NCBI GenBank assembly: GCA_040902515.1 | Contig: JBBDXB010000002.1 | Span: forward strand, 1-49,998 | DNA length: 49,998 nt | Direction of reading: 5' to 3' | Origin: Patescibacteria group bacterium | Lineage (GTDB): Bacteria; Patescibacteriota; SICC01 | In this document: positions 8,445 to 49,998 of the stretch, one piece after another | Numbering within the stretch: position 1 is the first letter of the stretch | How the letters are laid out: each line of letters opens with the position of its first letter | Translations under genes and position numbers: made by a program | Notes under the pieces: model-generated | What the model was told of the DNA's origin: nothing | Database searches by the model: none | Seen by the model: only the letters and a program-made list of their open reading frames with translations

Positions 8445-8458
8445 GGCTCGCGGCCCGC

Positions 8459-9562
8459 TCAGCGGACGCGCCGGCCGAGCGTCACAGGAAGGCGGCGCTC
8501 TTCCCCGCCGCGACGGATCGTCACCTGGACCCGATCGCCGGGAGAGTGGGCCGCGATCAATGACGACAGCGAGTGCTCCCGGTCGACCGCGGTCCCGTCG
8601 ACGGCCGCAATCACGTCATTCGGGCGGATTCCCGCCTGCGCCGCGGCGCTGCCCGGCACGACGGAAATCACCAGGGCCCCCTGCGATACCCCCACCTCGC
8701 GTTCCTCGGCGATCTCCGGGGTCAGGGTCACGCTCGTCACGCCGAGCTGGGCACGGACGATCTCTCCCCGTTCCTGGTAGCTATCGACCGCCTGTCGGAC
8801 CACGTCCACAGGAATCGCGAAACCGATACCTTCGGCACCTCCCGCGATCGCCGTGTTGATGCCGATGACCTGTCCGTCGAGATTGACCAGTGGCCCGCCA
8901 GAGTTCCCCGGATTGATGGCCGCGTCGGTCTGTAGGAGATTATCGAGGTTGGCGGCGGCGTCGCCGATGACCGCCCTGCCGGTGGCGGACAGCACGCCGG
9001 TAGTCACCGTGTGGTCGAACTGCCCGAGCGCGTTACCGATCGCAATCACCTGCTGGCCCACCCGGAGGCCGCTGACCTCGCCGAGCTCCACGACCGGCAG
9101 TTCCGAAGCCTCGATCTTCAGGAGCGCCAAGTCGAACACGGGGTCGGTCCCTACCACCCGCGCGCCGAAATCACGACCGTCCTCCAGAATGACGGTCGGG
9201 TTCTCCGCCCGATCCTCGATGACGTGGCGGTTCGTGACGATCAGACCGTCTGCGGTGATGATGAATCCGCTGCCCGCACCTTCCGTTCCCTCGGGCGCCA
9301 GAAGCGATGGCGCCCCCGTCACGTCGATCGACACCACGGCGGGCTCGACTTCCCGGACGGCATCGATCACGGCACTTTCCTCGGTGACCGTCACCTGACG
9401 GGCGACCTCGCCGGGCGCGGCGGCCGGACTGCCCCCGAACAGGTACGTACCGGCGGCGGCCCCGCCGACCCCGGCGGCGAATGATAGCACGACGGCAGCC
9501 GCGAAGAACTTCAGGCCGACCGGCCCGGGCGGGCGAGCATCCACCGGAACGCGCGGGCTCAC
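8459..9562 (-). CDS. htrA: HtrA/DegP-family serine protease (trypsin-like domain + one PDZ), N-terminal membrane anchor
   Basis: 367 aa. Catalytic-triad context ..TNRHVI.., ..DLALLKI.., ..GNSGGPLVN... C-terminal PDZ. The GTG start overlaps the LCP gene stop (GTGA). Confidence 0.88.
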   Translation of the reverse strand: MSPRVPVDARPPGPVGLKFFAAAVVLSFAAGVGGAAAGTYLFGGSPAAAPGEVARQVTVTEESAVIDAVREVEPAVVSIDVTGAPSLLAPEGTEGAGSGFIITADGLIVTNRHVIEDRAENPTVILEDGRDFGARVVGTDPVFDLALLKIEASELPVVELGEVSGLRVGQQVIAIGNALGQFDHTVTTGVLSATGRAVIGDAAANLDNLLQTDAAINPGNSGGPLVNLDGQVIGINTAIAGGAEGIGFAIPVDVVRQAVDSYQERGEIVRAQLGVTSVTLTPEIAEEREVGVSQGALVISVVPGSAAAQAGIRPNDVIAAVDGTAVDREHSLSSLIAAHSPGDRVQVTIRRGGEERRLPVTLGRRVR

Positions 9563-17700: not shown

Positions 17701-17878
17701 AGTGCGGCAGGCCCGTCGCGAACGGCGGACCGTCGTAGAACGTGAACCGCTTACCCTTCTCGGTCCGTTGCAGGGATTTCCGGAACGTCTGCTCCCGCTT
17801 CCAAAGCCGCAGGATCCGCTCTTCCAGCTTCGGGAATGACGTGACCGGTTTCGGGGTGGAAAGTCGTTTCTTCTCCAT
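14795..17878 (-). CDS. ileS: Isoleucyl-tRNA synthetase (type 2, long C-terminal domain)
   Basis: 1027 aa. HIGH region PHYGHLLQG, KMSKS region KKMSKRLKNYP, CP1 editing domain. ATG at 17878. Confidence 0.96.
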   Translation of the reverse strand: MEKKRLSTPKPVTSFPKLEERILRLWKREQTFRKSLQRTEKGKRFTFYDGPPFATGLPHYGHLLQGTIKDIVPRFRTMQGRYVERRFGWDCHGLPVEYELEKERGIKGRPDILKMGVATFNDACRSIVLRHTKEWQKTTERLGRWIDFENDYKTMDPQYMESIWWVVKTLWEKGLLYEGRKAMHICPRCATPLSNFEVTQGYRDRVDESVYVAFPLADDPDTALVAWTTTPWTLPGNVLLAVGPKIGYVKVRHDGKYYVVAADRVTAVFGDDVEVRESVKADSLVGRRYEPPFPMDGLSGKHHEVVASDAVTAEDGTGVLHVAPAFGEEDNAIGEREGAAFVRHVDIIGRFTEEFGRHVGMKAHGEGDAAVIADLAAEGRLVRKERFTHSYPHCWRCDTPLLNYTTDSWFVAVTKVKRQLLAENRKIDWMPAHVRDGRFGKWLEGARDWAISRNRFWGNPLPIWKCDNDHVTVIGSREELKRLSGKAPRDLHKQFVDGITFPCPDCGEEARRIEDVLDCWFESGSMPYASVHYPFEHRREFAQRYPADFIAEALDQTRGWFYTLHVLGVALQGSRAFEQVVTTGLVLAEDGKKMSKRLKNYPEPSEVFSKYGADAMRLYLVQSPVVRGDDLRFAERDVAELSQSFLGTLYNTYVFLATYASVDGWEVSGRPRAPRHLMDRWILARMDGAVRTVTSGLEQGDLMAASRELSAVLDDLSNWYVRRSRRRFWKSESDADKRQAYATLHHVLCVFTRLAAPFVPFLTDHIHRELTGGSAHLATWPRAGKTTPAGARLAHTMTDAREIVRLGLAARGEAGVKVRQPLALARVIDRSGRKKSNEIVRIIAEELNVKEVRFVEREGKLIRKVPRPVPAVLGPALGSEAQRVIRALKQGEYRVQGRAITAAGHRLPPDGVEFVYEHGGELAVCSSEHFVVALDTELTDALRQEGYARDVIRHVQELRKSRGLSVDDRIKLTLATDAPELVRALDAHRRLIEDETLARPLALEETGPEAERVQVSGLPLTISLRRA

Positions 17879-18060
17879 GGGATGACCTCGCGGTTGCGAG
17901 GACCCTGCCGGGCGGTACCACCTCGGTTCCCTCCAAACGAGGGCGCTTCGTTGACGGCGATGACGGGCCGCGGCCGTCCGGGTCTACTGGCTCGTCCGCG
18001 GACGAGGGTTCTTCCGGAAGCATCTCCCGGTGATGGCCGGGGTCAGGCGCTTCTCTAGGC
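17879..18060 (-). promoter_or_regulatory. T-box riboswitch (tRNA-Ile sensing leader of ileS), translational SD-sequestering type
   Basis: Minus-strand RNA contains:
- a T-box sequence AACCGAGGUGGUACCGCCC (17929..17910)
- an antisequestrator GAGG-[UGGUACC]-GCCC-GGCA-GGGU-CCUC
- a competing CCUCGC-AACC-GCGAGG hairpin that buries the SD GAGG, 7 nt before the AUG, with no U-tract
- a preceding CCCUC-GUUUG-GAGGG (Stem III-like) hairpin
- a short 5' hairpin GAAGC..CCCGG-CCAUCA-CCGGG..GCUUC presenting AUC+A (18034..18031)
- an AGAGA motif at about 18051..18055. Confidence 0.82.
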
Positions 18061-18070
18061 TCAGGATAAT

Positions 18071-18625
18071 CTATTTCCGTTTCCGGGTCGAACGCCGCGT
18101 GGAGCCTTTCGTCTCGAGCACCACCCATTCGTTCTTGTCGATCACCGAGTTGGGGATGACGTGGACCCTCCCGTCCGGCGTCCGGATGCGCGTCTTCCGG
18201 GCCGTCATGCCCACCACGTAGCCGACGGTCCCCTTCTCCCCCGCCCGTACCTTCGCTCCCGGTTGGAAGTTCCGGTCGGCGGCCAGGGACAGTCCCGACA
18301 AGGTGTCCGCCACCAGCGGCGCGATCCCCGTCGAGACGAAGAGGGCCACGATCACCGACGAGCCGGTCACCGCCACCAGGACGTCGTCCAGGCCGAGCTT
18401 CTGGAGCAGTACCAGAAAGAGGACCACCCAGAGAAATGCGCGCGTCAGGGAGTACAGGAGCATTGCCAGTGCCTTCGGAACGTTGCTCGCCCGGAGCACC
18501 GAGGCGAGGATGAAGATCGCCAGCTCCACCAGCAGATAACCGATCAGGAGCGTGATCAGGAACTCCGGCAATCGGTCCCAGAAGTTCTGGCCGACGATCT
18601 CCAGTCTCGAGACGAACGCTTCCAT
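18071..18625 (-). CDS. Small-conductance mechanosensitive channel family protein, truncated 184-aa form
   Basis: Three TM segments, then the MscS pore/beta-domain signature ..IAPLVADTLSGLSLAADRNFQPGAKVRAGE..GYVVGMTARKTRIRTPDGRVHVIPNSV... The large C-terminal vestibule domain is mostly missing. TAGGAT lies 8 nt before ATG 18625. Confidence 0.82.
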   Translation of the reverse strand: MEAFVSRLEIVGQNFWDRLPEFLITLLIGYLLVELAIFILASVLRASNVPKALAMLLYSLTRAFLWVVLFLVLLQKLGLDDVLVAVTGSSVIVALFVSTGIAPLVADTLSGLSLAADRNFQPGAKVRAGEKGTVGYVVGMTARKTRIRTPDGRVHVIPNSVIDKNEWVVLETKGSTRRSTRKRK

Positions 18626-18763
18626 ACCCGTCTATCCTACCCGTCCGTCCATCGGGAAGTCCAAGCAAGGGTTCGTCCGGATCACCGCCGGAGAGGGCCG
18701 GATCGTCGTCCTCGTCGGACTCCGGAAGCAGGGCCACCTCGATCGCCGCCAATTGGTCTGCGC

Positions 18764-19033
18764 TCAGCCGAGTGTCCGGATCGCCAAGCTCGTGAGGATC
18801 TGCAGTACCACCAGGGCTAAGATCGGCGAGAAGTCGATCCCAACCATCGGCGGCAGGATTCGCTGGAACGGCTTCAGGATCGGTTCGGTCACCTCCATCA
18901 GGAACCGGCCCAACGCGCCGCTCGGATGCGGATTGATCCAGCTCATCAGCACCCTGATGATGATCAGGATCTGCAGCGTGAAGCTCAGGATCTCGATGAA
19001 CTGGACCAGGAACATCCGCGTCATGGTTTCCAT
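18764..19033 (-). CDS. yggT: YggT/Ycf19-family small membrane protein
   Basis: Start moved to ATG 19033 (METMTRMFLVQFIEILSFTLQILIIIRVLMSWINP...PILKPFQRILPP..GIDFSPILALVVL), 89 aa with 2 TM. The upstream part of ORF 18764..19135 is Trp/Arg-rich junk. Confidence 0.8.
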   Translation of the reverse strand: METMTRMFLVQFIEILSFTLQILIIIRVLMSWINPHPSGALGRFLMEVTEPILKPFQRILPPMVGIDFSPILALVVLQILTSLAIRTLG

Positions 19034-19802
19034 CTTCCCTTGCCCGCCGGTCGGTTGCAATCGGGCGGACTGCCGGATCCGGCTCCGCCGGAGCTGCTTC
19101 CGACTCACTGACGGCCAGCGCCACCCAGGGGTCATCCGCGCCGATATCCCTTCGCCGCAGGGCGATTTCCGCGGCCAGCCGGCGGTCCAGCGGCTTCCGC
19201 TGAGCGCGGAGCCGGACCAGGAGCGTTGCCAGGTCTACCGGCAGCGCGGCGGGCGCCACGTCCGGATGTCTGTCGCCGTCTTCCGGCACCGTGACATCCT
19301 GCGGCAGGTGGTCCGGTCCGGAATCGTCCGGGAACAGGCCGGGGTGACGCTCGCTCCGGCGCGTCGGGGGTCGCTCGGAACGGGTGTCGGCGTGAGCCCG
19401 AGGAGGGGTTTCCGGCCGGTGGTGCCGGTCGGGCGATGTCCCGCCGCCCCGCGGAGGCTCATCGTCCCGTTCCTCGTCCTTACCCCGCCGGATCTTTGAC
19501 AGGATCTCGGACCGCTTGCCCATCGGATCCCGCGCGAATTCGGCCAGGTCCGTCTCGAGGTCGCCGTCGTAGTAGGCCCCCGGTTCCGCGAGCAAAGTGA
19601 ACGCCTCCGCCTGGGTGTCCTCGCGCAGTCCGGGAATTTCCGCGACGCTACCCCAGAATTGCCCCGGGTCCCGGACCTCGAGGTTACTGCTTCGGATATT
19701 CCGGACGATGACCTCGCGGTCGGCTCCCGCAAGCGGCAATCCGGCGATCAACTCCTCTTTCGAAGCGGTGTGTAAGGTTTCTGTTTCAGGACTGATTGGC
19801 AT
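19034..19802 (-). CDS. Hypothetical acidic/Pro-rich protein, first gene after the cobalamin riboswitch; 3' end unresolved (no in-frame stop until 17751)
   Basis: ATG 19802 lies 16 nt after the riboswitch terminator. Third positions are GC-rich and residue composition is balanced (MPISPETETLHTASKEELIAGLPLAGADREVIVRNIRSSNLEVRDPGQFWGSVAEIPGLRED..). The coding signal fades where the frame enters yggT (about 19033). The end coordinate is where the coding signal stops, not a stop codon. Confidence 0.4.
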
Positions 19803-19818
19803 ATGTGGTTGTTTGATT

Positions 19819-19841
19819 AAAAAACGCGCCATCAGGGCGCG
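19819..19841 (-). terminator. Intrinsic terminator, expression platform of the cobalamin riboswitch (and only visible terminator after nrdJ)
   Basis: Minus strand: CGCGCC-CUGAU-GGCGCG followed by UUUUUU (plus-strand a19819..a19824). An alternative CAGGG-AAUCGCG-CCCUG helix overlaps its 5' arm. Confidence 0.75.
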
Positions 19842-19990
19842 ATTCCCTGACCTATCGACCGTAGGTCGGAACATGTCGCGGACGAACCGGTACTCTGGCT
19901 TACCTCGCGCCCGTCAGGGCGCTCGGATCACAGTGGCGGGACCGCGGCCGATTCTCACGGCGCTTCCCCGGCTCCATCCGTTTCCATCAA
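19842..19990 (-). promoter_or_regulatory. Cobalamin (B12) riboswitch aptamer
   Basis: Minus strand: GGAAACGGAUGGAGCC-GGGGAA(19969..19964)-GCGCC-GUGAGAAUC(19958..19950)-GGCCGC-GGUCCCGCCACUGU(19943..19930)-GAUCCGA-GCGCCC-UGAC-GGGCGC-GAGGUA-AGCCAGAGUACCGG(19900..19887)-UUCGUCCGCGACAUGUUCC. This matches the conserved core and the B12 box of the cobalamin riboswitch family, with a P1-like closing helix. Confidence 0.8.
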
Positions 19991-20019
19991 GGGTTATTAA
20001 AAGGACTGCTCGGGCAGGG

Positions 20020-22407
20020 TCAGCCGCACGCGGAGTAGCCGCAGGTATGGCAGACCTTGCACCCGGACGCGAACTCGAGCGGGCCGCCGCAGTCGGGGCA
20101 AATCCCGGCAAGGTTGGTGGCGTCCTGCTGGGACGCTTCCGCGGCCCCGGCGATGGCCTGGGCCTTGGCGTCGACTTCCGCTGCCTGGGCCTTGGCGTCT
20201 TCCGGTAACGCCGACTGCTGCTCAGCGCCACCAGTCTCCGGAAGTTCCAGCTTGGGGTAGAGGTAATCCTCGATCGTCTTGCCGATCGCGTCGGCCACGG
20301 ACGTCACCTTCCGGTCGCCGAATCCGTAGGGTTGGTCGGTGATGCCCCGGAGCGATTTGATGATCAGCCGCGGCGCCACACCGGCCCGGAGGCTGTGCGA
20401 AATCAGGCGGCAGATCGCCTCGGTCATGGAGGCGCCCAGGCCGCCGGCCTTGCCAAGCATCGCGAACACTTCGAGCAGATTACCGTTCTCGTCGGTGTTC
20501 ATGGTGACGTACATCTTGCCGTAGGCGGTCATCTGGCGTACGGTCACGCCCTTCAGCTTGCCGGGACGTGGCGCCAGGATGCCACGGGCCATCTCCCCCG
20601 GTTTCGCATCGCCGGCAGCCTCCGCCGGCTGCTCTTCTTTCTTCTCGTCGGAGACGCGCGTCAGCACCGCGTCACGGCTGCCGTCGCGATAGAACGTGAC
20701 GCCCTTGAGGCCCATGTCGTAGGCGGCCTCATACAGCTCCTTCACCTGCTCGACCGTGTAGGAGTTCGGCGCGTTCACGGTCTTCGAGATCGAACTGTCG
20801 GTGTAATCCTGGATCTTGGCCTGTACCTTCACGTGGTCCATCGGCGTCAGGTCGTTCGAGGTCACGAAATAATCGGGTATGTTGCCGGCCTTGGCATCCT
20901 CCGGATGCTCGTCTTTCCAGGCCTTGAAGAGCGGATGGTAGAGGATGTGCTCGCCGGTCCGGTCGGTACGCTTCATCGCGAAGTCGTAGACCGGCTCGAT
21001 GCCGGAGGACACGCCGGAGAGCAGCGAGGTCGTCCCGGTGGGGGCCTGGGTCAGGACGACCGCGTTGCGGATACCGTACGTCGCGATCTTGTCCTGGACC
21101 TCTTTCGGGAGCCGTTTGATGAACCAGCCCTGCATGTACTTGCTGCGATCGAACATCGGGAACGGCGCCTTCTCCTTGGCGATTTCCGCCGATTCGTCGT
21201 AAGCGGCGTCACGGATGGTCTTGTAGATCTTGTCGATCACGTCCAACGATTTGTCGGAACCGTAGCGGAGCTTCATCTTGATCATCGCGTCACCAAGACC
21301 CATCGTGCCGAGACCGGTGCGGCGGGTGCCCATCTGCTGCTCCTCGTTCTCCTTGAAGAAGTAGTAGTTGGCATCCACGACGTTGTCCAGCGCGCGGATC
21401 GCGACGCGGGAATGGTCGGCTAGGGACTCGTAGTCCATCTCGCCCTCTTCGGTAACAAACGCGGAGAGGTTGAGCGCGCCGAGATTGCAGACCGCCCAAG
21501 CACCGAGCGGCTGTTCGCCGCAGGGGTTGGTGGAGATCAGCTGCTCGTAGTACCAGGTGTTGCTGCGCTTGTTCGAGCGCTCCATGAAGTGCAGTCCCGG
21601 CTCGGCGGACGCGTGGGCGCTCTCGCAGATCTTGCTCCAGACTTCCTTGGCCTTGACCGTCTTGTAGTGCTTGCCTTCCCACTTGAGCTCCCAGTCACCG
21701 TCCTCCTTGACTGCCTTCATGAAGCCGTCGGAGATGCAGACGGAGATGTTCGCACCGAGCAGGCGCTTGAGGTCACGCTTGGCGCCGATGAACTCTTCCA
21801 CGTCCGGGTGGTCGTCGTTGAGCATCAGCATCAGCGCACCGCGCCGGCTCCCGCCCTGTTGGATCACCTCATGGGTGGCGACCGAATAGAGCTCACCCCA
21901 CGGGATCGGACCCGAGCTGGTGCCGTTAACCGTCTTGATGTGGCTGCCGCGCGGACGGAGTGAACTGAGGTTCACGCCGACGCCGCCGGCCCGGCACATG
22001 ATCTCGGTCATCGCCTTGAGATTATCGAGGATGCCGTCCCGCGAATCCGTCGGTGACGGGATCACGAAGCAGTTATAGAACGTCACTTGGTGTCCGGTCC
22101 CGGCTCCGGAAAGGATCCGACCGGCCGGCACGAACTTGAAACCCTCCATCGCCTTGTAGAACCGCTGCTCCCAGTGCTTCCGCTTGGCCGGCTCCTCCAC
22201 GAGGGCGAGCGCCTTGGCGACGCGGCCCCACATCTGCTCGGGGTACGCTTCCATCGGGTTGCCCTCCTGGTCCTTCCAGGCGTAGCGGTCCAAGAATACC
22301 TTCTTCCGGATGCCGTCGAGCTCGGTACCCTTCTCCACCGGCACGGGCCGTTTCAACGCGGCCTGCTTTAGGTTTTTCGGGGGTTTTTGAATGGTGGCTT
22401 CGGGCAC
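20020..22407 (-). CDS. nrdJ: Adenosylcobalamin-dependent (class II) ribonucleotide reductase
   Basis: 795 aa. N-terminal ..KKVFLDRYAWKD.. and the core ..NPCGEQPL.. are typical of class II RNR. Cys-rich C-terminal tail CPDCGGPLEFASGCKVCHTCGYSACG. GTG start at 22407 with SD AAAGGAGCATC. Confidence 0.95.
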   Translation of the reverse strand: MPEATIQKPPKNLKQAALKRPVPVEKGTELDGIRKKVFLDRYAWKDQEGNPMEAYPEQMWGRVAKALALVEEPAKRKHWEQRFYKAMEGFKFVPAGRILSGAGTGHQVTFYNCFVIPSPTDSRDGILDNLKAMTEIMCRAGGVGVNLSSLRPRGSHIKTVNGTSSGPIPWGELYSVATHEVIQQGGSRRGALMLMLNDDHPDVEEFIGAKRDLKRLLGANISVCISDGFMKAVKEDGDWELKWEGKHYKTVKAKEVWSKICESAHASAEPGLHFMERSNKRSNTWYYEQLISTNPCGEQPLGAWAVCNLGALNLSAFVTEEGEMDYESLADHSRVAIRALDNVVDANYYFFKENEEQQMGTRRTGLGTMGLGDAMIKMKLRYGSDKSLDVIDKIYKTIRDAAYDESAEIAKEKAPFPMFDRSKYMQGWFIKRLPKEVQDKIATYGIRNAVVLTQAPTGTTSLLSGVSSGIEPVYDFAMKRTDRTGEHILYHPLFKAWKDEHPEDAKAGNIPDYFVTSNDLTPMDHVKVQAKIQDYTDSSISKTVNAPNSYTVEQVKELYEAAYDMGLKGVTFYRDGSRDAVLTRVSDEKKEEQPAEAAGDAKPGEMARGILAPRPGKLKGVTVRQMTAYGKMYVTMNTDENGNLLEVFAMLGKAGGLGASMTEAICRLISHSLRAGVAPRLIIKSLRGITDQPYGFGDRKVTSVADAIGKTIEDYLYPKLELPETGGAEQQSALPEDAKAQAAEVDAKAQAIAGAAEASQQDATNLAGICPDCGGPLEFASGCKVCHTCGYSACG

Positions 22408-29494: not shown

Positions 29495-30811
29495 CTAGCC
29501 GGATGCGGGCCGGCTGACGTCCCTAGGAAGCCGGGATTGCACTTCGGCGACCGCTTCCTTGAGCGGCACGGTCTCCTGCATGCCCGACGACATGTCGCGG
29601 ATGATGATGCTGTTTTCCATCGCTTCCTTCTGGCCGATGATCAATGCCAGCGAGACACCGAGTTTATCGGCTTGGCGTAACTGTGAGCGGATTCCCTCCT
29701 TACCGAACGAGGCCGTCACGGAAACGCCGGATTTGGTGAGGTCGCCGAGCAAGCCGAACGCGTGCCGCTTCGCCACGTCGCCGAGCTGGATCAGATAGAC
29801 CTGCGAGCGTTTGCTGTAGTGCTTCGGCCCGCGTTTCGCCTTGAGCGCCTCGACGATCCGGTAGATGCCACACCCGGCTCCGACCGCCGGGGTGGCCACT
29901 CCCCCCAGGGACTGGATCAGGCCGTCGTACCGGCCGCCGCCGATCAGCGATGCATCGGCTCCGCCCGGTCCCCAGAACTCGAATACCGTACGGGTGTAGT
30001 AGTCGAACCCGCGGACCAGATGAGGGTTGAGCTCGTAATCGATACCGGCCTGGTCGAGATACTCCAGCACGGCGGTGAGATGCTCCCGGTCCTCGGGGAC
30101 AAGCTGGTCGACGAGCGGCGGGATTTGCTCGACCACCTCGCGGGTGGCGGGATCCTTGGTGTCCAGCAGGCGGAGCGGATTCTCCTTGAGCTGACGGCGG
30201 GCGTCATCCGACAGCCGCTCTTCGTGCGACACGACGGTATCCGTGATCAGTTTCCGGATGGCCTTTTGGGATGCCGGACCGCCGAGCGAGTTGATCTGGA
30301 CCGAGGGACGGTCGATCTCAAGCTCCTCCAGCATCTGCCAGCAGGTCAGGATCACCTGGGCGTCCAGCGCCGGGTCGGAGGAGCCGAATGCCTCCAGACC
30401 GAACTGCTCATGTTCCCGGAATCGCCCCGCCTGGGGACGTTCGTAGCGATACATGTCCTCGCAATACGCCAGCTTCACCGGTTGCGGAAGGCTTCCCATC
30501 CCATGTTCCAAGTAAGCCCGTGCCACGCCGGCCGTTCCTTCCGGCCGTAAGCTCACGGATTCGCCGGAGCGATCCTCGAACGTGTACATCTCCTTGTGGA
30601 CCAGCTCCGTCGCCTCGCCCACGGACCGGGTGAACAACTCCGTCCGCTCCAGTACCGGCATCCGGATCTCGGCGAAGCCATGCCGTTCGGCGATTTTCCA
30701 GAACGCCTGCTCGACGTGACGGTACGCGGCGGCATCATCACTGAGGATGTCGCGCATGCCACGGAGCGTCTGGAAGCGCCCGTCGGAAGCTGGTGGTTGT
30801 GATTCGCTCAT
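29495..30811 (-). CDS. hisS: Histidyl-tRNA synthetase
   Basis: 438 aa. Class II motifs (..LRGMRDIL.., ..YRYERPQAGRFREHEQFG.., ..GGGRYDGL..) and an anticodon-binding domain. Confidence 0.95.
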   Translation of the reverse strand: MSESQPPASDGRFQTLRGMRDILSDDAAAYRHVEQAFWKIAERHGFAEIRMPVLERTELFTRSVGEATELVHKEMYTFEDRSGESVSLRPEGTAGVARAYLEHGMGSLPQPVKLAYCEDMYRYERPQAGRFREHEQFGLEAFGSSDPALDAQVILTCWQMLEELEIDRPSVQINSLGGPASQKAIRKLITDTVVSHEERLSDDARRQLKENPLRLLDTKDPATREVVEQIPPLVDQLVPEDREHLTAVLEYLDQAGIDYELNPHLVRGFDYYTRTVFEFWGPGGADASLIGGGRYDGLIQSLGGVATPAVGAGCGIYRIVEALKAKRGPKHYSKRSQVYLIQLGDVAKRHAFGLLGDLTKSGVSVTASFGKEGIRSQLRQADKLGVSLALIIGQKEAMENSIIIRDMSSGMQETVPLKEAVAEVQSRLPRDVSRPASG

Positions 30812-30855
30812 GTTCCACCGTCCAGCTTATGGGTGCGGGCCCGGGCAGGCAACGG

Positions 30856-31770
30856 CTACGCACTTTCCCAGCGGGCGGAGACGAGGCGCGATGGGTCCGG
30901 AAGCTTCTCCAACTGCCCGCACGATTGCCGATGGATCGTGATCGTCTTGTGCAGCGTAACGTAGCCGACGATGGCCGCCAGGGGGCGCGGTCCGCAGCAT
31001 GCGGCGAACGTGGTCGGCAGCATCAGGTCCTGCCCGATCACCACCCGGAAACGGCCGGCTGCGGACGGGCGTCTCCGGGAGCGGGTCGGCGGGGTGGCGG
31101 CCAGCCCGAGCGCTTTGGCCAACGCCGTCTGGGTGACCCGGCCTTCGCCGAGCGCCGCCAGGACATCGTCGTCGGAGGACGCCCCGGCGGCGGCGCGCAA
31201 TCGCCCCCATTCGTCCTTCGAGAGACGGCCCGGGCGACGGTAGCGCCTGAGCAGTTCGGACAGGAGCTGCCGGCCTTCGGATACCGTCACGTCACGATCC
31301 TGCTCCCTGAAGAAACGTCGGATCGCATTCCGCGCGTGTCCCGTCCGGACCGTCTGCAGCCACCCCCGCTTGGGAGCCGCGGCCACACCGTATCCTTCCT
31401 TGTAGCGGCTGGGCACGAACGTCTCGACCGCACCGCCGAGACGCCCCAGCACATCAGCCAGAAGCGCGGCGGCCGTCAGGCCGTCGGCGTCGTAGTCGCC
31501 ATGCACCACGATCCGCTCGTTGCCCGCGATCGCCTTCCGGATCGTCCGCACGGCGGCGTCCATCCCCGAAAGTAGTCGCGGGTCATGAAGATCGTTCGCG
31601 TAATCCGGGTTCAGGAAGCCCTGTGCCGCCTTGAGCGTAGTGATCCCCCGGTTGTAGAGCAGCTGGGCGATCGGCCGAGGATACCGGGAAAACCGCCGTA
31701 AGAATGCCTCCGGGACCGGCTCGGAGCATTCCCAGCGACGCGTCGGTTCGGCTTTTTTTGTCGTAACCAC
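30856..31770 (-). CDS. Chimeric ORF: RecJ N-terminal fragment (DHH motifs I-II) fused in frame to the RelA/SpoT C-terminal helical + conserved-Cys (zinc-finger) region; no catalytic domains of either parent
   Basis: Residues 1-129: ..PIAQLLYNRGI..FLNPDY..LHDPRLLSGMDAAVRTIRKAI..ERIVVHGDYDADGLTAAALL..FVPSRYKEGYGV (RecJ). Residues about 133-304: ..RGWLQTVRTGHARNAIRRFFREQDRDVTVSEGRQLLSELL..DDVLAALGEGRVT..VVIGQDLMLPTTFAACCGPRP..IVGYVT..TITIHRQSCGQLEKL..RLVSARWE (RelA/SpoT post-TGS region). The junction is at about 31360..31386. GTG start at 31770. Confidence 0.7.
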   Translation of the reverse strand: MVTTKKAEPTRRWECSEPVPEAFLRRFSRYPRPIAQLLYNRGITTLKAAQGFLNPDYANDLHDPRLLSGMDAAVRTIRKAIAGNERIVVHGDYDADGLTAAALLADVLGRLGGAVETFVPSRYKEGYGVAAAPKRGWLQTVRTGHARNAIRRFFREQDRDVTVSEGRQLLSELLRRYRRPGRLSKDEWGRLRAAAGASSDDDVLAALGEGRVTQTALAKALGLAATPPTRSRRRPSAAGRFRVVIGQDLMLPTTFAACCGPRPLAAIVGYVTLHKTITIHRQSCGQLEKLPDPSRLVSARWESA

Positions 31771-31824
31771 GTTGATTTTTTGTGCGAAATGAGGTATGGT
31801 AGCGTATCTCTTATTATACGCGTT

Positions 31825-32373
31825 ATGTCTGCAGAAAAATCACAAGACGGTTACGAAAGGTCCGGCGAGCAACTCGCCCTTGATCCGGAGCTCTGGCCGG
31901 ACGGCATCGCCCAGCGGCTGGAACGTAGCGCGGACCGTTTCGAGGCGGATATCCACCGGATCGGCGCCGAGGCGCCGCAAGGCCTGGAACAGTATGTCGA
32001 ACAATGGTCCGAGCTGGAACAGTACCTCTCGGACATCCAACGGCTGGAGCGCATGCGCGGCCGGAACGACCATTTCGAGTTCGCGGAAGGGTTCGTCGCG
32101 GAAAGCGGCCAACAGTCGCGTCGGAAGGCCATGCGACACATGCGCCGCAGCGACCGCCTGCAAAGCCAGCACCGGACCGACGAATCCCGGAAAGCGTTCT
32201 ACGATAAGAACGAGACCATCGGGCAGAACATAGCCGTCAAGCGGCTCGGACGGCTCCAATGGGCGTACCGCCCCGGCAATCGGGAGCGTTTTGACGAGAT
32301 GCTGGTCAGTGCGACGGAAAGCCTTCTACGGGAAGAGGAGCGGGCCTGGCAGGGGCGTCAGGAAGCCGCCTAG
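31825..32373 (+). CDS. Hypothetical charged helical protein (182 aa), no recognisable family
   Basis: ATG 31825 (MSAEKSQDGYERSGEQLALDPELWPDGIAQRLE..). Third positions are GC-rich. TATTAT lies 7 nt upstream. It is the only plus-strand gene in a long minus-strand run. Its TAG stop shares the palindrome CTAG with the secF stop. Confidence 0.55.
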   Translation: MSAEKSQDGYERSGEQLALDPELWPDGIAQRLERSADRFEADIHRIGAEAPQGLEQYVEQWSELEQYLSDIQRLERMRGRNDHFEFAEGFVAESGQQSRRKAMRHMRRSDRLQSQHRTDESRKAFYDKNETIGQNIAVKRLGRLQWAYRPGNRERFDEMLVSATESLLREEERAWQGRQEAA

Positions 32374-33281
32374 GCGTTCCGCTTGGCCGCCCGCTTGTCT
32401 GACCACCGTTGCCACGTCACGAGCAGTGGTGCGGCGTTGAAGATCGATGAGTACGTACCGATCGCGGTGCCGATCAGGAGCGCCAGCACGAATCCCTGCA
32501 GCGATTCACCGCCGAAGAAGTACAGCGCGAAGAGAACCAACAGGACCGTCACGGAGGTGTTGATCGAGCGCACCAGCGACTGGGCGATCGAATAGTTGAC
32601 CGTCTCCGGGAACGAGCCGCCGATCCGCTTCACGAGGTTCTCTCGGATACGGTCGAAGACGACGATCGTGTCATGCACCGAGTAACCGATCACGGTCAGG
32701 AGCGCCGCGACGAAGTTGATGTCCACCGCGACGCCGGCGAATTTCCCGAGCAGTGCGAAGACGCCGAGCGTGAAGAGGACGTCATGAAGCAACGTGACGA
32801 TCGTGGTCGCCCCGAACCGCCAGCTCGAGGCCGGCTTCGGCACGTTCCGGAACGCGTACGCGATGTACATCAGGATCAGGAGCGAACCAAGCCCGACCGA
32901 AAGGATCGCCTTGTTCCGAAGATCCCGGCTGATCGCCGGCCCGACCGATTCGAAACGAAGCTCTTCGGTCCCTTCCCCCAACCGTCCTTCGATCTGCGCC
33001 AGCAGCCGGTTATGCTCCTCGGGATTGAGCTCGCTGACCCGTATCTGGAACGTGTCGTCCGAGGTTTCCTGTACGATCGGGTCACCGAAGGGACCTTCGG
33101 CCGCCTCGCGGACCTCGTCGCTGTCCGCGCCGGCCGGCACCTGCAGTTCGAGGAGCGAGCCGCCGGTGAAGTCGATGCCGAGCTTGAGCCCAAGCGTGGC
33201 CAGGGCGATGGTGCCGGGAATCACCAACAGCACGGAGATGAGGTACCACCACTTCCGGTAATTGACGAGCTTACGCAGCAT
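32370..33281 (-). CDS. secF: Protein translocase subunit SecF
   Basis: 303 aa, 6 TM, N-terminal ..YRKWWYLISVLLVIPG..GIDFTGG... Confidence 0.93.
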   Translation of the reverse strand: MLRKLVNYRKWWYLISVLLVIPGTIALATLGLKLGIDFTGGSLLELQVPAGADSDEVREAAEGPFGDPIVQETSDDTFQIRVSELNPEEHNRLLAQIEGRLGEGTEELRFESVGPAISRDLRNKAILSVGLGSLLILMYIAYAFRNVPKPASSWRFGATTIVTLLHDVLFTLGVFALLGKFAGVAVDINFVAALLTVIGYSVHDTIVVFDRIRENLVKRIGGSFPETVNYSIAQSLVRSINTSVTVLLVLFALYFFGGESLQGFVLALLIGTAIGTYSSIFNAAPLLVTWQRWSDKRAAKRNA

Positions 33282-34623
33282 CGGTGCCCTCCTTGGCCGT
33301 CCGGACTTTCCCCCCGGTATCCCAAAGCCGGGGCCGCTCGGCGAAGCGGGTCCGGACCGCCGCCCGCATCAATGTGCGGGTCACCGTGATCGCGGAGAAG
33401 AGCGAGACCAGGACGCCGAGTGCCAGTACGACCGCGAATCCCTTGATCGTCGAAGTACCAAATGTGAACAGCACGATCGACATCAGGATCGACGCGGCGT
33501 TCGAGTCACGGATCGAGGTGAACGCCCGGGAGAATCCCGTCTCCAGAGCCGCTGGAAGCGTCCTGCCGTCGCGGAGCTCTTCGCGCATGCGTTCGAAGAT
33601 CAGGATGTTCGCGTCAACCGCGATGCCGATCGACAGGATGAACCCGGCGATGCCGGCCAGGGTCAGCGTCACCGGAATCAGCTTGAAGAGGCTGACCATC
33701 ACCGCTGCGTAAAGCAGCAATGCCAGGACCGCCAGCACGCCGGGCAGCCGGTAGTACGCGATCATGAACGCGGCGACCAGCAGCAGGCCGACCAGTCCGG
33801 CGGCCAGGCTCTGCTCGACCGATTCCTGGCCGAGCGTCGGACCCACGGTCCGCTGCTCGACCTGCTCGACCGGTACCGGCAGCGCGCCCGCGTTCAACTG
33901 GAGCGCGAGCTGTCGCGCCTCTTCGATCGTGAACTGACCGGTAATCACGGCGTTACCGTCGGTGATCTCCTGGGAGACGCGCGGTGCGGAGATGATCTGG
34001 CCGTCGAGCACGATCGCGATCGGCTTGCCGACGTTCCGCTGGGTCAGCTCCGCGAACTTCTCGGCACCCTCGCTATTGAAGGTGATATTGATTTCCGGCT
34101 CGCCGGTCTGCTGATTGAACCCCACCGCCGCCCGCTTGAAGTCGGCGCCGGTCAGGCCCGTCTCCTCCTTGTAGGCGGCCAGCGGATCAGGGTTCGCCGG
34201 ATCGGCCGCGGGATCCTGCTCCCGGAACTCCATCTTCACCGTCGCCCCGATGATTTCCGAAGCTTCCTCCACGTCCGTCACGCCCGGCAGCTCCACGATC
34301 ACCCGGTAATCGCCGGCGGACCGATTCGCCTGGACGAGCGGTTCCGATACACCAAGCGCATTCACCCGCCGTTCGATCACGTCCACCGCTCCATCCAACG
34401 CTTCCGAGCGTTCTCCTTCCGGTACCTTCGACATGTCCGCCTGGTAGACCAGGTGCGAACCGCCTTCAAGGTCAAGCCCCTCGTGGACCTTGAGTTCCCG
34501 CTGGTAGTCGATGCCGAGCGGCTTCAGGTTGATGTCCGGACCGGAGGGCCAGGCCACCAGTCCCGCCAGTACCGCGGTCACCAGGATGCCTGCCAGCGCC
34601 AGTCTGATTTTCTTGCGTGTCAT
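33271..34623 (-). CDS. secD: Protein translocase subunit SecD
   Basis: 450 aa. N-terminal TM, a periplasmic-type domain (..LGLDLEGG..), and a C-terminal 5-TM bundle. Overlaps secF by 11 nt. Confidence 0.93.
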   Translation of the reverse strand: MTRKKIRLALAGILVTAVLAGLVAWPSGPDINLKPLGIDYQRELKVHEGLDLEGGSHLVYQADMSKVPEGERSEALDGAVDVIERRVNALGVSEPLVQANRSAGDYRVIVELPGVTDVEEASEIIGATVKMEFREQDPAADPANPDPLAAYKEETGLTGADFKRAAVGFNQQTGEPEINITFNSEGAEKFAELTQRNVGKPIAIVLDGQIISAPRVSQEITDGNAVITGQFTIEEARQLALQLNAGALPVPVEQVEQRTVGPTLGQESVEQSLAAGLVGLLLVAAFMIAYYRLPGVLAVLALLLYAAVMVSLFKLIPVTLTLAGIAGFILSIGIAVDANILIFERMREELRDGRTLPAALETGFSRAFTSIRDSNAASILMSIVLFTFGTSTIKGFAVVLALGVLVSLFSAITVTRTLMRAAVRTRFAERPRLWDTGGKVRTAKEGTDAA

Positions 34624-35740: not shown

Positions 35741-37150
35741 ATGCCCTGCTACGCGACCGTGCCGCTCGCCGTCACCCGTCGAGAGACGTACACGTACCGC
35801 TCCGAGATGCCGCTCCGGCGCGGGGAGGTGGTGCGTATCCGGTATGCCGGCCGGGAGCGTACCGGCGTGATCTGGAACTCCGCGGATGCCGATCCACGGG
35901 CGGTCGAAGTCAGTGATCGTACCGGAGAGCGCCTCCCCGACTGGCAGCTCCGGTTCGCGGAAGAGCTCGCGAAACGCTTCCTGGCGCCGCTAGGCCAGAC
36001 GTTGAGACTGTTTTTGCCGGAGTGGCGAGACGGTGATTGCGCACCGAAACGAACGAACCCCGGTGAATCCCGCCTTTCCCTGCTCGCCAGCACGGACCCC
36101 TGGCCGGAATACGCGGAAACGGTCTCAAAGGCACGCGGGCAATGCCTGGTGCTCGTTCCCGAAGCACGGCTGGTACGCGACCGGATTCCCGACGCGATCC
36201 CTTTCACTGCCACGATGCCGATCGCGGCACGGCGTGAGGCATGGAAGCGCGTAAGTTCGGATACCCGTGCGGTGGTCGTCGGCACCCGATCCGCCCTCTT
36301 CCTACCATGGTGCAACCTATCCACGATAATCGTGGACCAAGAAGACGAATTAGGCTATGTGAACGACCGCACTCCCCGCTACCACGCTCGGGAAGCCGCC
36401 CTGCTCCTTGCCGCACGACAGGGTGCCAGCCTGCTGCTGTCGTCGGTCGCACCCGGCCTGCGCGCCTGGGCGGCAGCCGGACAACCCGCATTGCCTGAAC
36501 CGGAACTCGTGCATCCCGGCGTGATCGGTATCCGTAACGTCTCCGGTCGCGATGTCCTGCCCTACGGACTGGCGGAACGGATACGGGAGACCGACGGCGA
36601 GGTCCTGGTGCATGCCACGATCCGCCACGTCGGCGGGATCCGCGACGCCCTGAAGCGGGCAGCTCCCGGTGCGCGGGTCCGCGTAGCCGGCCAACCGGCG
36701 CTCTTCCGTGACCGCCGCTACGCACTGGCTGTCGCGCTCGACTTCGATGCCCTTTTGTCCCGTCCGGGATACGCCGTTACCGAACGCGCGGTTTCGTTGG
36801 CCCGGAAGCTCGCGGCCCGGGTGGTGCCGGGCGGCCGGCTGCTGGTCTATACCGCGCATCCCGACCACCCCGCCCTGGCCGCGGCGGCGAGGACCTACCG
36901 CGCCTTTCTGGAAGCCGAGCTTGCCGAACGACGGACGCTCCGTCTTCCTCCGGCCGGACCGTTGGTCCGCATCGAGACCACGACGGCGGACGGACCGAAG
37001 GTCCTGGAGCAACTCGAGGCCCTCGGGGTACCGGAACGCAGTGCCAAAAGTACGCGCTCCGGTGACCGCGCCACCATCCTGGTGAAATGGGATCCTGCCA
37101 CGCTCAGGCCCCTGATCGCTCCCGAACGGCGCATTTCCGTCGACTACTGA
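35741..37150 (+). CDS. priA: PriA-like primosomal protein N', degenerate (no Walker A, DEAH -> DQED, no Cys-rich Zn region)
   Basis: 469 aa. The N-terminal 3'-DNA-binding domain pattern (..YTYRS..L.RGEVVRIRY.GRERTGVIW..) and the motif II neighbourhood TIIVDQEDELGYVNDRTPRYHAREAALLLA identify the family. Where GxxGSGKT is expected the sequence is LLASTDPWPEY. Confidence 0.78.
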   Translation: MPCYATVPLAVTRRETYTYRSEMPLRRGEVVRIRYAGRERTGVIWNSADADPRAVEVSDRTGERLPDWQLRFAEELAKRFLAPLGQTLRLFLPEWRDGDCAPKRTNPGESRLSLLASTDPWPEYAETVSKARGQCLVLVPEARLVRDRIPDAIPFTATMPIAARREAWKRVSSDTRAVVVGTRSALFLPWCNLSTIIVDQEDELGYVNDRTPRYHAREAALLLAARQGASLLLSSVAPGLRAWAAAGQPALPEPELVHPGVIGIRNVSGRDVLPYGLAERIRETDGEVLVHATIRHVGGIRDALKRAAPGARVRVAGQPALFRDRRYALAVALDFDALLSRPGYAVTERAVSLARKLAARVVPGGRLLVYTAHPDHPALAAAARTYRAFLEAELAERRTLRLPPAGPLVRIETTTADGPKVLEQLEALGVPERSAKSTRSGDRATILVKWDPATLRPLIAPERRISVDY

Positions 37151-46986: not shown

Positions 46987-49353
46987 ATGCACGCACTGAC
47001 CAACCATTTCACGAGCCTTGCCCACTGGGTCAGAGGCTCCCATACGCATCTGTTGATCGCCGGACTGGCCGCGGTCGCATTGATTTCCGCGGCGCTCACG
47101 TTCGCCGCCGGACCGGATCCCGCGAAAGACGAGGTCTCCATCGAAGTCCCGGCAGCGGGTGCGATCGAACGGGAAGACTTCCCGGTCGAGGTCACCTTCA
47201 AGCCGAAGCAGGGCCGTCAGACATTCAGCACGCACGTCTACCTCGACGGGCGGCTGATCGACGTACGGACCCAGAAAGGCAAGAAGTTCGACGGCAAGGA
47301 AACCGTCACCTACGGTTTCCAATACGGTAACACCCGTTCGGGAGCGAACGCCGTGACCAACACCCGCTTCGACCGGCAGCTCCTCCGCCCCGGTGAACAT
47401 GAAGTGAAGGTCGTGGTACGGAACGGCGTGCAGCCAGGTGTCGCGCAGAGCAGCGAAGAGGTGGCTGCGGAAGACTCCCACCGCTTTACCGTCGATGATG
47501 TGAAGAGCGTGACGACCGCCCAGGAGGACCCGATCACCATCAAGGCCAAAGATCTGGCCAAGTCTCCGGTGGTCGACCGGAGCGACACCAGGATCGCCCG
47601 GGAGCAAGCCCAGGCTGCGACCGGCAGCCTCACCTCTCCGGATACCATCGCCAACGGCCTGGGTGCCCGGAACCTGTTGAGCCCCTTCGTCGAGACGGCG
47701 AAGGCCCACCAGGGAGACCACGGGAATATCCGGCTGATCTCGGCCATCGACAGTAACCGGAACGGAAGCGCCAATGCCCGCCTGGGCAACGTCCAGTTCT
47801 GGGTGAACAAGCTGAACTCGGGCATGAACTGCCACGGCTACCCGCTCGACAGCAACAACACCCTGCGGATCACCACTCCTGCCGGCGGTGCCAACATCGG
47901 CGAGACCCTGGTCAGGAACTGCCCGACCTTCCTGCCGACCGACGGCACGTTCGCCGGTCCGGGACAGCTCTACCGCGTCCGCCTGATCATGCCGGCCGGC
48001 CACGAGATGGTGAAAATCAACCCGATCGGCCTAAACGGGCTGGTGAAGGATTACCAGCCGAACCCCGCCGGCCAGTCCGGCCCGTACATCGACTTCCATC
48101 TGCCGAAGAACCGGACGGTCGAAATCCGCTGGGTGATCGGCAAGATTCCCCCGCCTCCGGCTCCTCCGGCGCCTCCGGCTCTGCCCGGGAACGTGGCTTC
48201 CTGCAGCAATGGCGCGGCCCCCTTCTACCGGCTGAACAAGATCGCCGGCGCCAAGGGAGACCACTTCTACACCCTGAGCGCCAGCGAACGGAACAATGCC
48301 ATCACGTCCCATGGATACAAGTACGAGGGCGTGGCAGGCTACCTGTTCCCTAACCAGAAGCCCGGTACGGTGCCTTTCTACCGGCTCTGGAGCCCCACGG
48401 CCATAGATCACTTCTACACGACCAGCGCGGAATGGCGGGACCGGGCCGCGGCCAATGACGGCTATACCTACGAAGGAATCGCCGGGTATCTCTACCCGAA
48501 CCAGGCGGCCAACACCGCTCCCCTCTACCGCTCGTACAGCCACGGTGCCGCCGACTACTTCTACACCATGAGCGCCGCGGAACGCGACAGTGCGGCCAAG
48601 AGCGGCTGGGGCTACCAGGATGTCGCGGGCTTCATGTTCGCCTCCTGCCCGCCGGCACCCGAGCCGGAACCACAAGCACCGCCTGACTCCGACGGTGACG
48701 GCGTACCGGACGACAAGGACGCCTGCCCGAACGAACCGAAGGGTCCGGACGGCACGGCCGACGGCTGCCCGAAGCTCACCTCCTTCGATCCGAACGCCCC
48801 GTTCCTGGCCCTGACCAAGGTCTCGGCGACCGAAGCCGAAGTGGACGCGTTCGCCCTTGAGTTCGACGGCACCCGGCCGAACGGTGCGATCGACACGCTG
48901 ACCGCGACGGTCGACGGTACGGTGACCGACACGGTGAAGGTCAACGAGCAGCCCGCGAACGTCAGCGAAGACGAAGCCGCGAGCAAGGACCTGGAAAGCG
49001 CGACGATCCGGAACCAGCCCCTGAAGATCGGTAACATCGAAGACGGCAAGGCCCACACGGTCGAGCTGGCCGCCACCACCGAGGACGGCAACCAGGAGAC
49101 CGTGACCTTCAAGGTCGAGCCGGCGGCGGCCGAGATCCCGACGCCTCCGGAAGATGAAGGGGAAGCCGTCGAAGCCCCCGTTCCGGTCCCGGCCACCGGT
49201 GCCGTCAAGGCGGTGACTAATGCCGAGGATGACTTCTCCGCCCTGCCGAAGACGGGTCAAGCCGGCCTGATCGCCTTCCTCGTCTTCCTCCTGGCCAGTG
49301 CCACCTACTACGGCACCCAGTTCTACCGGGAACGGAAGGCCAAGCGAAGCTAG
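46987..49353 (+). CDS. Large cell-surface protein with sortase (LPXTG) anchor
   Basis: 788 aa. Domain order: N-terminal signal/anchor (..HLLIAGLAAVALISAALTFAAG), Ig-like N-terminal region, poly-Pro linker (PPPPAPPAPPALP), three HFYT-type repeats, a thrombospondin-type-3-like Asp-rich motif (DSDGDGVPDDKDACPNEPKGPDGTADGCP), and a C-terminal LPKTG (49243..49257) followed by a hydrophobic stretch and RERKAKRS. Confidence 0.86.
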   Translation: MHALTNHFTSLAHWVRGSHTHLLIAGLAAVALISAALTFAAGPDPAKDEVSIEVPAAGAIEREDFPVEVTFKPKQGRQTFSTHVYLDGRLIDVRTQKGKKFDGKETVTYGFQYGNTRSGANAVTNTRFDRQLLRPGEHEVKVVVRNGVQPGVAQSSEEVAAEDSHRFTVDDVKSVTTAQEDPITIKAKDLAKSPVVDRSDTRIAREQAQAATGSLTSPDTIANGLGARNLLSPFVETAKAHQGDHGNIRLISAIDSNRNGSANARLGNVQFWVNKLNSGMNCHGYPLDSNNTLRITTPAGGANIGETLVRNCPTFLPTDGTFAGPGQLYRVRLIMPAGHEMVKINPIGLNGLVKDYQPNPAGQSGPYIDFHLPKNRTVEIRWVIGKIPPPPAPPAPPALPGNVASCSNGAAPFYRLNKIAGAKGDHFYTLSASERNNAITSHGYKYEGVAGYLFPNQKPGTVPFYRLWSPTAIDHFYTTSAEWRDRAAANDGYTYEGIAGYLYPNQAANTAPLYRSYSHGAADYFYTMSAAERDSAAKSGWGYQDVAGFMFASCPPAPEPEPQAPPDSDGDGVPDDKDACPNEPKGPDGTADGCPKLTSFDPNAPFLALTKVSATEAEVDAFALEFDGTRPNGAIDTLTATVDGTVTDTVKVNEQPANVSEDEAASKDLESATIRNQPLKIGNIEDGKAHTVELAATTEDGNQETVTFKVEPAAAEIPTPPEDEGEAVEAPVPVPATGAVKAVTNAEDDFSALPKTGQAGLIAFLVFLLASATYYGTQFYRERKAKRS
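48217..48645 (+). repeat. Three tandem ~47-aa protein repeats (DUF5648-like 'FYRL..DHFYT..E...A...GY.YEG.AGY' units) inside the surface protein
   Basis: APFYRLNKIAGAKGDHFYTLSASERNNAITSHGYKYEGVAGYLFP / VPFYRLWSPTAIDHFYTTSAEWRDRAAANDGYTYEGIAGYLYP / APLYRSYSHGAADYFYTMSAAERDSAAKSGWGYQDVAGFMFA. Confidence 0.75.
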
Positions 49354-49432: not shown

Positions 49433-49549
49433 CGCCGGTGACGACCTACTCTCCCGAGCCCTAGCGGCCCAGTACCATCGGCGCTGCGGGGCTTAACGGC
49501 CGTGTTCGGAATGGGAACGGGTGTGGCCCCCGCGCTGGAGTCACCAGCG
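49433..49549 (-). rRNA. rrf: 5S ribosomal RNA
   Basis: Reverse complement reads GCUGGUGACUCCAGCGCGGGGGCCACACCCGUUCCCAUUCCGAACACGGCCGUUAAGCCCCGCAGCGCCGAUGGUACUGGGCCGCUAGGGCUCGGGAGAGUAGGUCGUCACCGGC. It shows the universal CCGAACACGG..GUUAAGC..GCGCCGAUGGUACU..GGGAGAGUAGG pattern and a terminal helix I pairing. Ends are +/-3 nt. Confidence 0.9.
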
Positions 49550-49645
49550 TGCTGACGACAAGTTCGGTTAACAGACCGGCACTGCTGCCGGCACTGTCAG
49601 TCAAGGCTACGCGAATGCAAGCACTCGCGAAAGGATAAATACATG

Positions 49646-49998
<353 letters not shown>

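Follow-up and report, generated by a model that had tools for sequence, protein, structure and literature searches.

The 49,998-nucleotide (nt) stretch of DNA considered here, referred to as the window (positions 1 to 49,998 of contig JBBDXB010000002.1, assembly GCA_040902515.1 of a Patescibacteria group bacterium), contains an uninterrupted reading frame of 304 amino acids (aa) with a GTG start at 30856..31770 on the minus strand. In this open reading frame (ORF), the N-terminal part of RecJ runs directly into the C-terminal part of a long RelA/SpoT homologue (Rel). RecJ is a single-stranded-DNA-specific 5'-3' exonuclease; long Rel enzymes combine hydrolase (HD), synthetase, TGS and regulatory domains, of which TGS recognises the CCA terminus of the tRNA in the A site. 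The chimeric composition of the ORF is real and far beyond chance. As we argue below, the chimera is very probably a young relic of genome reduction, namely, what was left behind when one very recent deletion, of about 2.7 kb, took away most of recJ together with most of rel. Most likely, RecJ exonuclease and (p)ppGpp synthesis and hydrolysis were thereby lost together in this population.

Two gene fragments in one reading frame

Both halves of the frame are assigned by profile searches and by solved structures, in agreement with the initial annotation, which had described an in-frame RecJ-Rel chimera from the letters of the sequence and had proposed such searches as a check. Residues 32-130 match positions 3-100 of the 546-position RecJ model TIGR00644 (E 9e-26, NCBIfam), and residues 131-303 match positions 426-605 of the 687-position spoT_relA model TIGR00691 (E 1.9e-18, NCBIfam). 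Because both halves are fragments, the whole-protein scores stay below the family cut-offs (90.2 vs 396.9 bits for RecJ, 66.2 vs 499.2 bits for Rel). Among Pfam families, RelA_AH_RIS (PF19296) exceeds its gathering score (45.4 vs 23.8 bits) and DHH gives a partial, sub-threshold match to profile positions 1-41 of 125; the Pfam scan detects no HD (HD_4), RelA_SpoT synthetase, TGS, DHHA1 or RecJ_OB domain in the chimera, so that the hydrolase, synthetase and TGS domains are missing, just as first noted. In structural terms, residues 9-129 align to the solved RecJ chains 8y30, 1ir6, 2zxo and 5f54, and residues 133-302 to residues 471-658 of Escherichia coli RelA and to Bacillus subtilis Rel in ribosome complexes (5iqr, 5kps, 6htq).

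The RecJ part corresponds to aa 1-134 of the intact 580-aa RecJ found in three related loci described below (L007, L042 and L067). The only RecJ catalytic motif left is DHH motif I (HGDYDADG). The earlier claim that motifs I and II are both kept holds for motif I alone, as the motifs that follow it in the intact relatives, TVDCG and TDHH, lie beyond the breakpoint. In solved RecJ structures the core sheet of the DHH fold has roughly five strands. An AlphaFold2 model of the chimera, built from a 16-sequence alignment, retains two of the DHH strands in the RecJ stub; with a mean predicted local distance difference test score of 52.5 (70-89 in the RecJ part, below 50 in the Rel part) this model is too poor for fold comparison and was used as a secondary-structure hint only. 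Compared with the RecJ enzymes represented by TIGR00644 and by the structures from Thermus thermophilus (1IR6, 2ZXO) and Deinococcus radiodurans (5F54) as well as 8Y30, the chimera shares, in aa 1-129, motif I and the P-x-R-x-x-EGYG signature, and it likewise occupies the syntenic recJ position behind a recJ upstream region. It differs in having lost TVDCG, DHH, DHHA1 and the OB fold, which make up 77% of RecJ, and so cannot be an exonuclease.

The Rel part is about 94% identical at the aa level to the C-terminus of Rel from the closest relative, L005 (10 substitutions and one missing codon in some 175 residues), and 83% identical to P0002; there is a single-codon in-frame deletion in the linker between the alpha-helical (AH) domain and the zinc-finger domain (ZFD). 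As in long RelA/SpoT homologues (5IQR/5KPS, 6HTQ), aa 130-304 comprise the AH domain and the ZFD, also known as the ribosome-intersubunit (RIS) domain, with the CC..H..C motif intact, and the frame ends at the same stop codon and is followed by the same hisS gene as the long Rel of the closest relative. Unlike those enzymes, the chimera has no HD, synthetase or TGS domain and could not make, degrade or sense (p)ppGpp by any known mechanism.

No second protein of this build was encountered. When 1.84 billion cluster representatives were searched exhaustively with phmmer, 14,912 matches were obtained; among the best 150 of these, only the protein of the window itself (P0001) is covered over aa 1-304, and the others cover either about 10-131 or about 130-304. 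In a collection of 5.8 billion clusters, the window's own protein was likewise the only one with full coverage. A second chimera would be expected near the top of this ranking, because both of its halves would match. Two listed proteins with two matched stretches each, P0160 and P0197, have scores in the range of the RecJ-only matches. P0137, a protein of 1848 aa with three matched stretches, was considered as a RecJ-Rel fusion and discarded, being a triple tandem RecJ; its unusual architecture (three DHH, two DHHA1 and three RecJ_OB domains and a weak Toprim match) is unrelated to the window. A metagenome scan with the chimera as query also returned no second chimera, and in the protein collection no N-terminal part of Rel exceeds 67% identity to that of L005. 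Every contig that carries the chimera is 100% identical, representing one population, and the architecture is unique to that population.

The ancestral locus and the junction

In a search of one genome for each species with the HisS protein of the window, the closest matches came from metagenome-assembled genomes (MAGs) of Saccharibacteria/Saccharimonadia within the Patescibacteria, or Candidate Phyla Radiation (CPR): L005 (98% identity), L006 (93%; this is the 2767-bp contig of L001 under a different accession), L007 (78%, on an 810-kb contig) and L042 (76%). Both L007 and L042 show the full gene order manC, secD, secF, an opposite-strand ORF of 170-240 aa, recJ (580 aa), rel (628 aa) and hisS, with rel overlapping the end of recJ, which bears out the secD-secF-recJ-rel-hisS locus postulated at the outset. 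We take the secDF-recJ-relA-hisS order to be typical of Firmicutes, going by the B. subtilis map; a literature search on this synteny gave nothing usable. The RecJ proteins of L007 and L042 comprise DHH, DHHA1 and OB domains (in L007, DHH at 92-245, DHHA1 at 363-454 and RecJ_OB at 469-576 according to Pfam), and the Rel proteins of L007 (8066..9952), L042 (5292..7178) and L005 (22..1563) comprise HD, synthetase, TGS and AH/RIS domains (Pfam). The gene for Rel is present in L005 and L001, the contigs of which both stop short of recJ. The metagenome scan yielded one further intact locus, from a more distant relative, on contig L067, where an intact recJ, its product 59% identical to the RecJ part of the chimera, is followed by a rel that matches aa 2-481 and 575-627 of the L007 Rel. 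Judging by tblastn with the L007 Rel as query, the AH/linker stretch that separates TGS from ZFD has diverged strongly in this rel (7661..9400) or is in part absent. Neither recJ nor rel was found within 10 kb of hisS in about 60 other CPR loci, and the 50-kb window itself contains no second RecJ or Rel.

The breakpoint can be placed almost to the nucleotide. The blastn alignment between L005 and the window is continuous over 11.9 kb at 93.6% identity and ends exactly at window position 31383; upstream of it L005 runs on into the segments of rel that encode TGS, synthetase and HD, and the window into recJ codons. The junction thus falls at 31384|31383, inside the interval 31360..31386 suggested earlier. 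L001/P0002 (HisS 93%) shows the same pattern, with DNA homology beginning abruptly at CCGCGGCTCCCAAGCG. The codons at the junction read ...GGA TAC GGT GTG | GCC GCG GCT CCC..., with the conserved RecJ sequence ...EGYGV on the left and, on the right, Rel sequence (GP)AAAPKR, the first residues past TGS; in L005 the last TGS residues abut the junction point (...EILRGP|AAAPKR). The recJ of L067 reads GTG|GCC at the equivalent site, which would allow for microhomology of at most about 3 nt, and if the ancestral recJ read GTG GCC as well, the exact junction nucleotide is ambiguous by about 3 nt. The metagenome scan with the chimera as query gave no closer recJ by which to define the breakpoint microhomology. 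No repeat links the recJ and rel breakpoints in the intact relatives, and a repeat-mediated deletion was rejected for this reason.

Since the L005 alignment stops at the junction and relatives have recJ and rel intact at the syntenic site, the chimera appears to have been made by one deletion of about 2.7 kb, in accord with the history that the initial annotation had considered simplest. The ancestor, a high-GC member of the Saccharimonadia, would have had a recJ of about 580 codons followed by a rel of about 628 codons encoding HD, synthetase, TGS, AH and ZFD, natively without ACT. The deletion would have taken out recJ codons ~135-580 and rel codons 1 to ~458 (L007 numbering) and brought recJ codon 129 next to the codons that directly follow the TGS domain, the product keeping the recJ upstream region and start and the native stop of rel. 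As no longer repeat links the breakpoints, the joining was probably illegitimate or microhomology-mediated, with at most a few shared bases.

Could the contig falsely join a recJ fragment to a rel fragment, as an artefact of assembly or binning? The window contig does come from a metagenome assembly, and the support consists of assembled contigs rather than reads. However, the identical chimera is found on a contig of the GenBank MAG GCA_040903945.1 (11.5 kb) and in two Logan assemblies, each built from one SRA run, SRR27977660 (11.0 kb) and SRR27977661 (6.3 kb). From end to end, each of these three contigs matches the window at 100% identity, that is, for kilobases through the junction, which is flanked by more than 5 kb on one side or on both. 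RecJ homology ends and Rel homology starts within about 3 nt, leaving no common k-mer for a de Bruijn mis-join, and a repeat-driven mis-join was rejected because the breakpoints share no repeat, the intact relatives having none between recJ and rel. Synteny on both flanks agrees with the relatives, and no near-identical intact allele of recJ or rel occurs in the protein collection of 5.8 billion clusters, in which these assemblies are included. A mis-join, which the initial annotation had named next to unassignable halves as evidence that would speak against it, is therefore very improbable, given that three further assemblies from two read sets are 100% identical.

The relatives also bear on two features that had been read as signs of degeneration. 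The frame does end where an ACT/RRM domain should begin, and a PLA tripeptide does replace PGD. The intact Rel proteins of the clade (L005, L001/P0002, L007, L042 and P0138; ~628 aa), however, likewise end directly after the ZFD, without ACT/RRM, which is why the chimera 'lacks ACT', and the PGD position reads PLA in L005, PLV in L001, PGE in L007 and PPGP in L042. Both features being found in intact Rel, their interpretation as an ACT truncation and a PGD decay was rejected. Judging from these sequences, the absence of ACT is ancestral to the clade and separate from the deletion event, and PLA is lineage variation rather than decay of the chimera. Long RelA/SpoT homologues (RSH) naturally devoid of ACT/RRM are on record for Francisella tularensis (RelA), Elusimicrobium and Methylotenera (Atkinson 2011, as quoted in PMC7058999). 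Intact Rel of the present clade ends in the same way, the chimera being different in that it retains only the last ~175 residues, attached to a RecJ stub. Many other Patescibacteria have a Rel of about 500 aa with HD, synthetase and TGS only, according to the Pfam annotation of the listed proteins, so that a systematic shortening of the regulatory tail seems to be a trait of long RSH enzymes in the CPR.

Young relic or retained module

Of the two possibilities left by the initial annotation, a very recent relic or a retained module, we favour the relic, because a single population has this architecture and rel persists in the closest relative. With two DHH strands and motif I, and without hydrolase, synthetase and TGS, the product would do neither the job of RecJ nor that of Rel, and the ORF, presumably a functionless remnant, would not yet have decayed for lack of time. 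An in-frame fusion would arise by chance in one case out of three; this prior, together with the restriction to one 100%-identical population, is why the relic is preferred to a retained module. Because L005 still has rel, the deletion must post-date the split from L005, which lies at a synonymous divergence (dS) of about 0.14.

Several observations, taken together, weigh against a functionless relic. There are no stops or frameshifts in the chimera, the fusion is in frame, and the -10-like element upstream is kept. The zinc ligands CC..H..C, which had been reported as retained, are indeed intact (C258, C259, H280 and C284, all invariant in the alignment), as are 65 out of 65 sites that are invariant in the four intact Rel C-termini; in the RecJ N-terminus, 51 of the 59 invariant sites are kept, which is within the range of intact genes. 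Pairwise ratios of nonsynonymous to synonymous divergence (dN/dS) for the Rel part amount to 0.20 between the window and L005 and to 0.15-0.16 in comparisons with L001, as against 0.04-0.06 for hisS. In a three-taxon comparison, the window branch shows a dN of 0.012 and a dS of 0.085 in the Rel part, a ratio of ~0.15, compared to ~0.28 on the L005 branch. About 5 nonsynonymous changes are inferred on the window branch, where about 32 would be expected under neutrality since the split and about 5 is the background expectation. These estimates rest on only 9 polarised changes on the window branch in the Rel part; the dN/dS check suggested earlier could accordingly be carried out for this part (0.15-0.20), the RecJ part having no close relative for comparison. 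Neither dN/dS nor the polarised counts can separate a recent deletion from constraint. Either the deletion occupies less than about 20% of the window branch (at most ~0.02 synonymous substitutions per site, by a rough Poisson bound), or purifying selection has continued. Finally, the deletion, known from assembled contigs, may not be fixed in the population.

The same observations would suit a retained or neo-functional module, in which AH and ZFD still bind the ribosomal A-site finger and the RecJ stub serves as a leader for expression or solubility. Such a module would account for an intact in-frame ORF with native start region and stop, for the preservation of the four zinc ligands and of all invariant Rel C-terminal sites, and for the low dN/dS on the window branch. 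The ZFD is, moreover, a known ribosome-docking element: in full-length enzymes it inserts its CC motif into the A-site finger of the 23S rRNA, and the C-terminal domain (CTD) of E. coli RelA alone can act on ribosomes non-enzymatically (PMC7058999); according to Turnbull 2019 and Takada 2020 (PMC7058999), non-catalytic RelA/Rel CTD pieces with the ZFD can interact with ribosomes. The engineered constructs, however, include TGS and usually RRM. The fragment in the chimera has neither, and it thereby lacks the contacts through which TGS and ACT/RRM make the binding of ribosome and tRNA more stable; its own ribosome binding is hypothetical. Residual affinity of the product for the ribosome is conceivable, and yet without TGS, RRM and a catalytic domain it has no known output. 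Recency explains the low dN/dS equally well, and with intact rel in a relative 93.6% identical at the nt level there was almost no time for selection to act. No homologous chimera exists elsewhere among the listed matches, the RecJ stub is, by the low-confidence model, an incomplete DHH fold, and the in-frame outcome needs no explanation beyond chance. We consider a retained module rather unlikely, even though the fragment shows no decay.

It might also be that the frame has been kept in order to spare the essential downstream hisS from transcriptional polarity, the ORF then mattering as a translated spacer. The chimera, hisS, HIT, rpsU, yqeY and further genes follow each other in the same direction with short gaps, 44 nt separating the chimera from hisS, and the overlap of recJ and rel in L007 and L042 suggests coupled expression. 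Conversely, the spacer between rel and hisS contains the motif TTGCCT-17-TAAGCT about 13 nt before the hisS ATG; this motif is invariant in five genomes (window, L005, L001, L007 and L042), its conservation exceeding that of the coding DNA on either side, and it may represent a promoter from which hisS is transcribed with a very short leader. Because of this conservation, which is compatible with hisS having its own promoter, the polarity argument is weakened. An operon or Rho-dependent polarity in this lineage is without direct evidence, and a spacer effect would account for the survivorship of the allele, not for a function. This explanation thus appears quite improbable. A newborn gene in the broad sense, be it a ribosome-docking, non-enzymatic factor composed of the RecJ stub, AH and ZFD in a (p)ppGpp-free cell or a translated spacer for hisS expression, is likewise unlikely; if true, it would offer a natural experiment on the Rel regulatory domains acting alone.

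As a very young relic, the chimera adds one more case to a familiar category, the deletion-generated fusion remnant in genome reduction. The meaningful event would be the one-step loss of RecJ-dependent repair/recombination and of the stringent response in a CPR population, a loss caught at nucleotide resolution next to an undeleted sister lineage that is 93.6% identical in DNA. A precedent for the outcome exists in the same class: 'Candidatus Teamsevenus rhizospherense', a saccharibacterium, is reported to have neither recJ nor (p)ppGpp synthesis, and most other Saccharibacteria have both (Starr et al. 2018, PMC6031116). The two functions missing are the same, whereas that paper reports absence alone, with no breakpoint or remnant; by analogy with the present case, we infer that the joint absence might be explained by a one-step loss of adjacent genes. 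If the population were followed or cultured, it would provide a natural pair of Rel-null/RecJ-null and wild-type cells in near-identical backgrounds. There is also a warning for annotation, in that an intact ORF passing the RelA_AH_RIS threshold could be recorded by an automated pipeline as a RelA/SpoT-type gene in a genome from which (p)ppGpp metabolism has almost certainly disappeared.

Feature coordinates, flanking signals and other genes of the window

Coordinates of the chimera, its parts and the flanking features in the window
Feature	Position	Strand	Basis
Chimeric ORF, 304 aa and stop	30856..31770	-	GTG start; identical protein encoded on 3 other contigs
recJ-derived 5' part, codons 1-129: N-terminal helices and first two DHH-domain strands	31384..31770	-	TIGR00644 match; alignment to RecJ of L007/L042/L067; PDB RecJ chains
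DHH motif I HGDYDADG, aa 90-97	31480..31503	-	Invariant columns H90-G97 in RecJ alignment
Deletion junction, between aa 129 and 130	31383..31384	.	...GGATACGGTGTG then GCCGCGGCTCCC...
rel-derived 3' part, codons 130-304 and native rel stop codon	30856..31383	-	TIGR00691 match; alignment to L005 Rel
AH domain of Rel, aa ~133-221	31108..31374	-	Pfam RelA_AH_RIS aa 140-244; 6htq chain x residues 69-160
ZFD/RIS domain, aa ~244-302	30865..31041	-	6htq chain x residues 199-256; RelA 5iqr
Zinc ligands C258, C259, H280, C284 of ZFD	30919..30999	-	Invariant in Rel C-terminus alignment
TATAAT, -10-like, upstream of recJ start, within CGTATA(A/C)T block; putative promoter	31813..31818	-	Alignments
rel-hisS spacer, conserved; putative promoter	30812..30855	-	TTGCCT-17 nt-TAAGCT, then hisS ATG
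hisS, intact downstream neighbour, synteny anchor	29495..30811	-	Profile match; HisS search
secF, upstream synteny anchor	32370..33281	-	Pfam
secD, upstream synteny anchor	33271..34623	-	Pfam
Hypothetical ORF, conserved, running divergently from recJ; synteny anchor	31780..32373	+	Also L007 5810..6322 (-), L042 3004..3729 (-)

The chimera is probably still expressed, because the recJ upstream region is retained: the block CGTATAAT is common to the window, L007 and L042, and L067 aligns there only with a gap. A consensus scan called no sigma-70-type promoter near the ORF. On the strength of the upstream sequence, the chimera is probably both transcribed and translated. Where recJ of L007 and L042 starts with ATG, the window has TTC (31741..31790, minus strand), and the GTG start of the window ORF lies six codons downstream, near the ATG of L067. 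The ORF between secF and recJ, which is on the opposite strand in each of these loci and encodes 170-240 aa, has a common ...ERLERSADRFE... motif and no match in Pfam or NCBIfam.

Elsewhere in the window, a marginal cobalamin riboswitch (33.1 bits vs a gathering score of 31.5) lies at 19868..19996 on the minus strand, directly upstream of a 707-aa ORF without a Pfam match (17751..19874, minus strand) and directly downstream of a ribonucleotide reductase ORF with class II (B12-type) features (20020..22407, minus strand). A PriA-like ORF of 469 aa (35741..37150, plus strand) has only the PriA 3'-DNA-binding domain, with no Walker A motif and with DQED in place of DExH; a short PriA-like form is also present in L007 (1093..2466, minus strand; 46% identity) and L067 (33%), so that the clade appears to have a helicase-less relative of PriA. 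The edge of the window (49433..49998, minus strand) takes in a 5S rRNA gene as well as the 3' end of the 23S rRNA gene, and next to them lies a 788-aa ORF (46987..49353, plus strand), the recognisable part of which is DUF5648 (aa 421-549) only.

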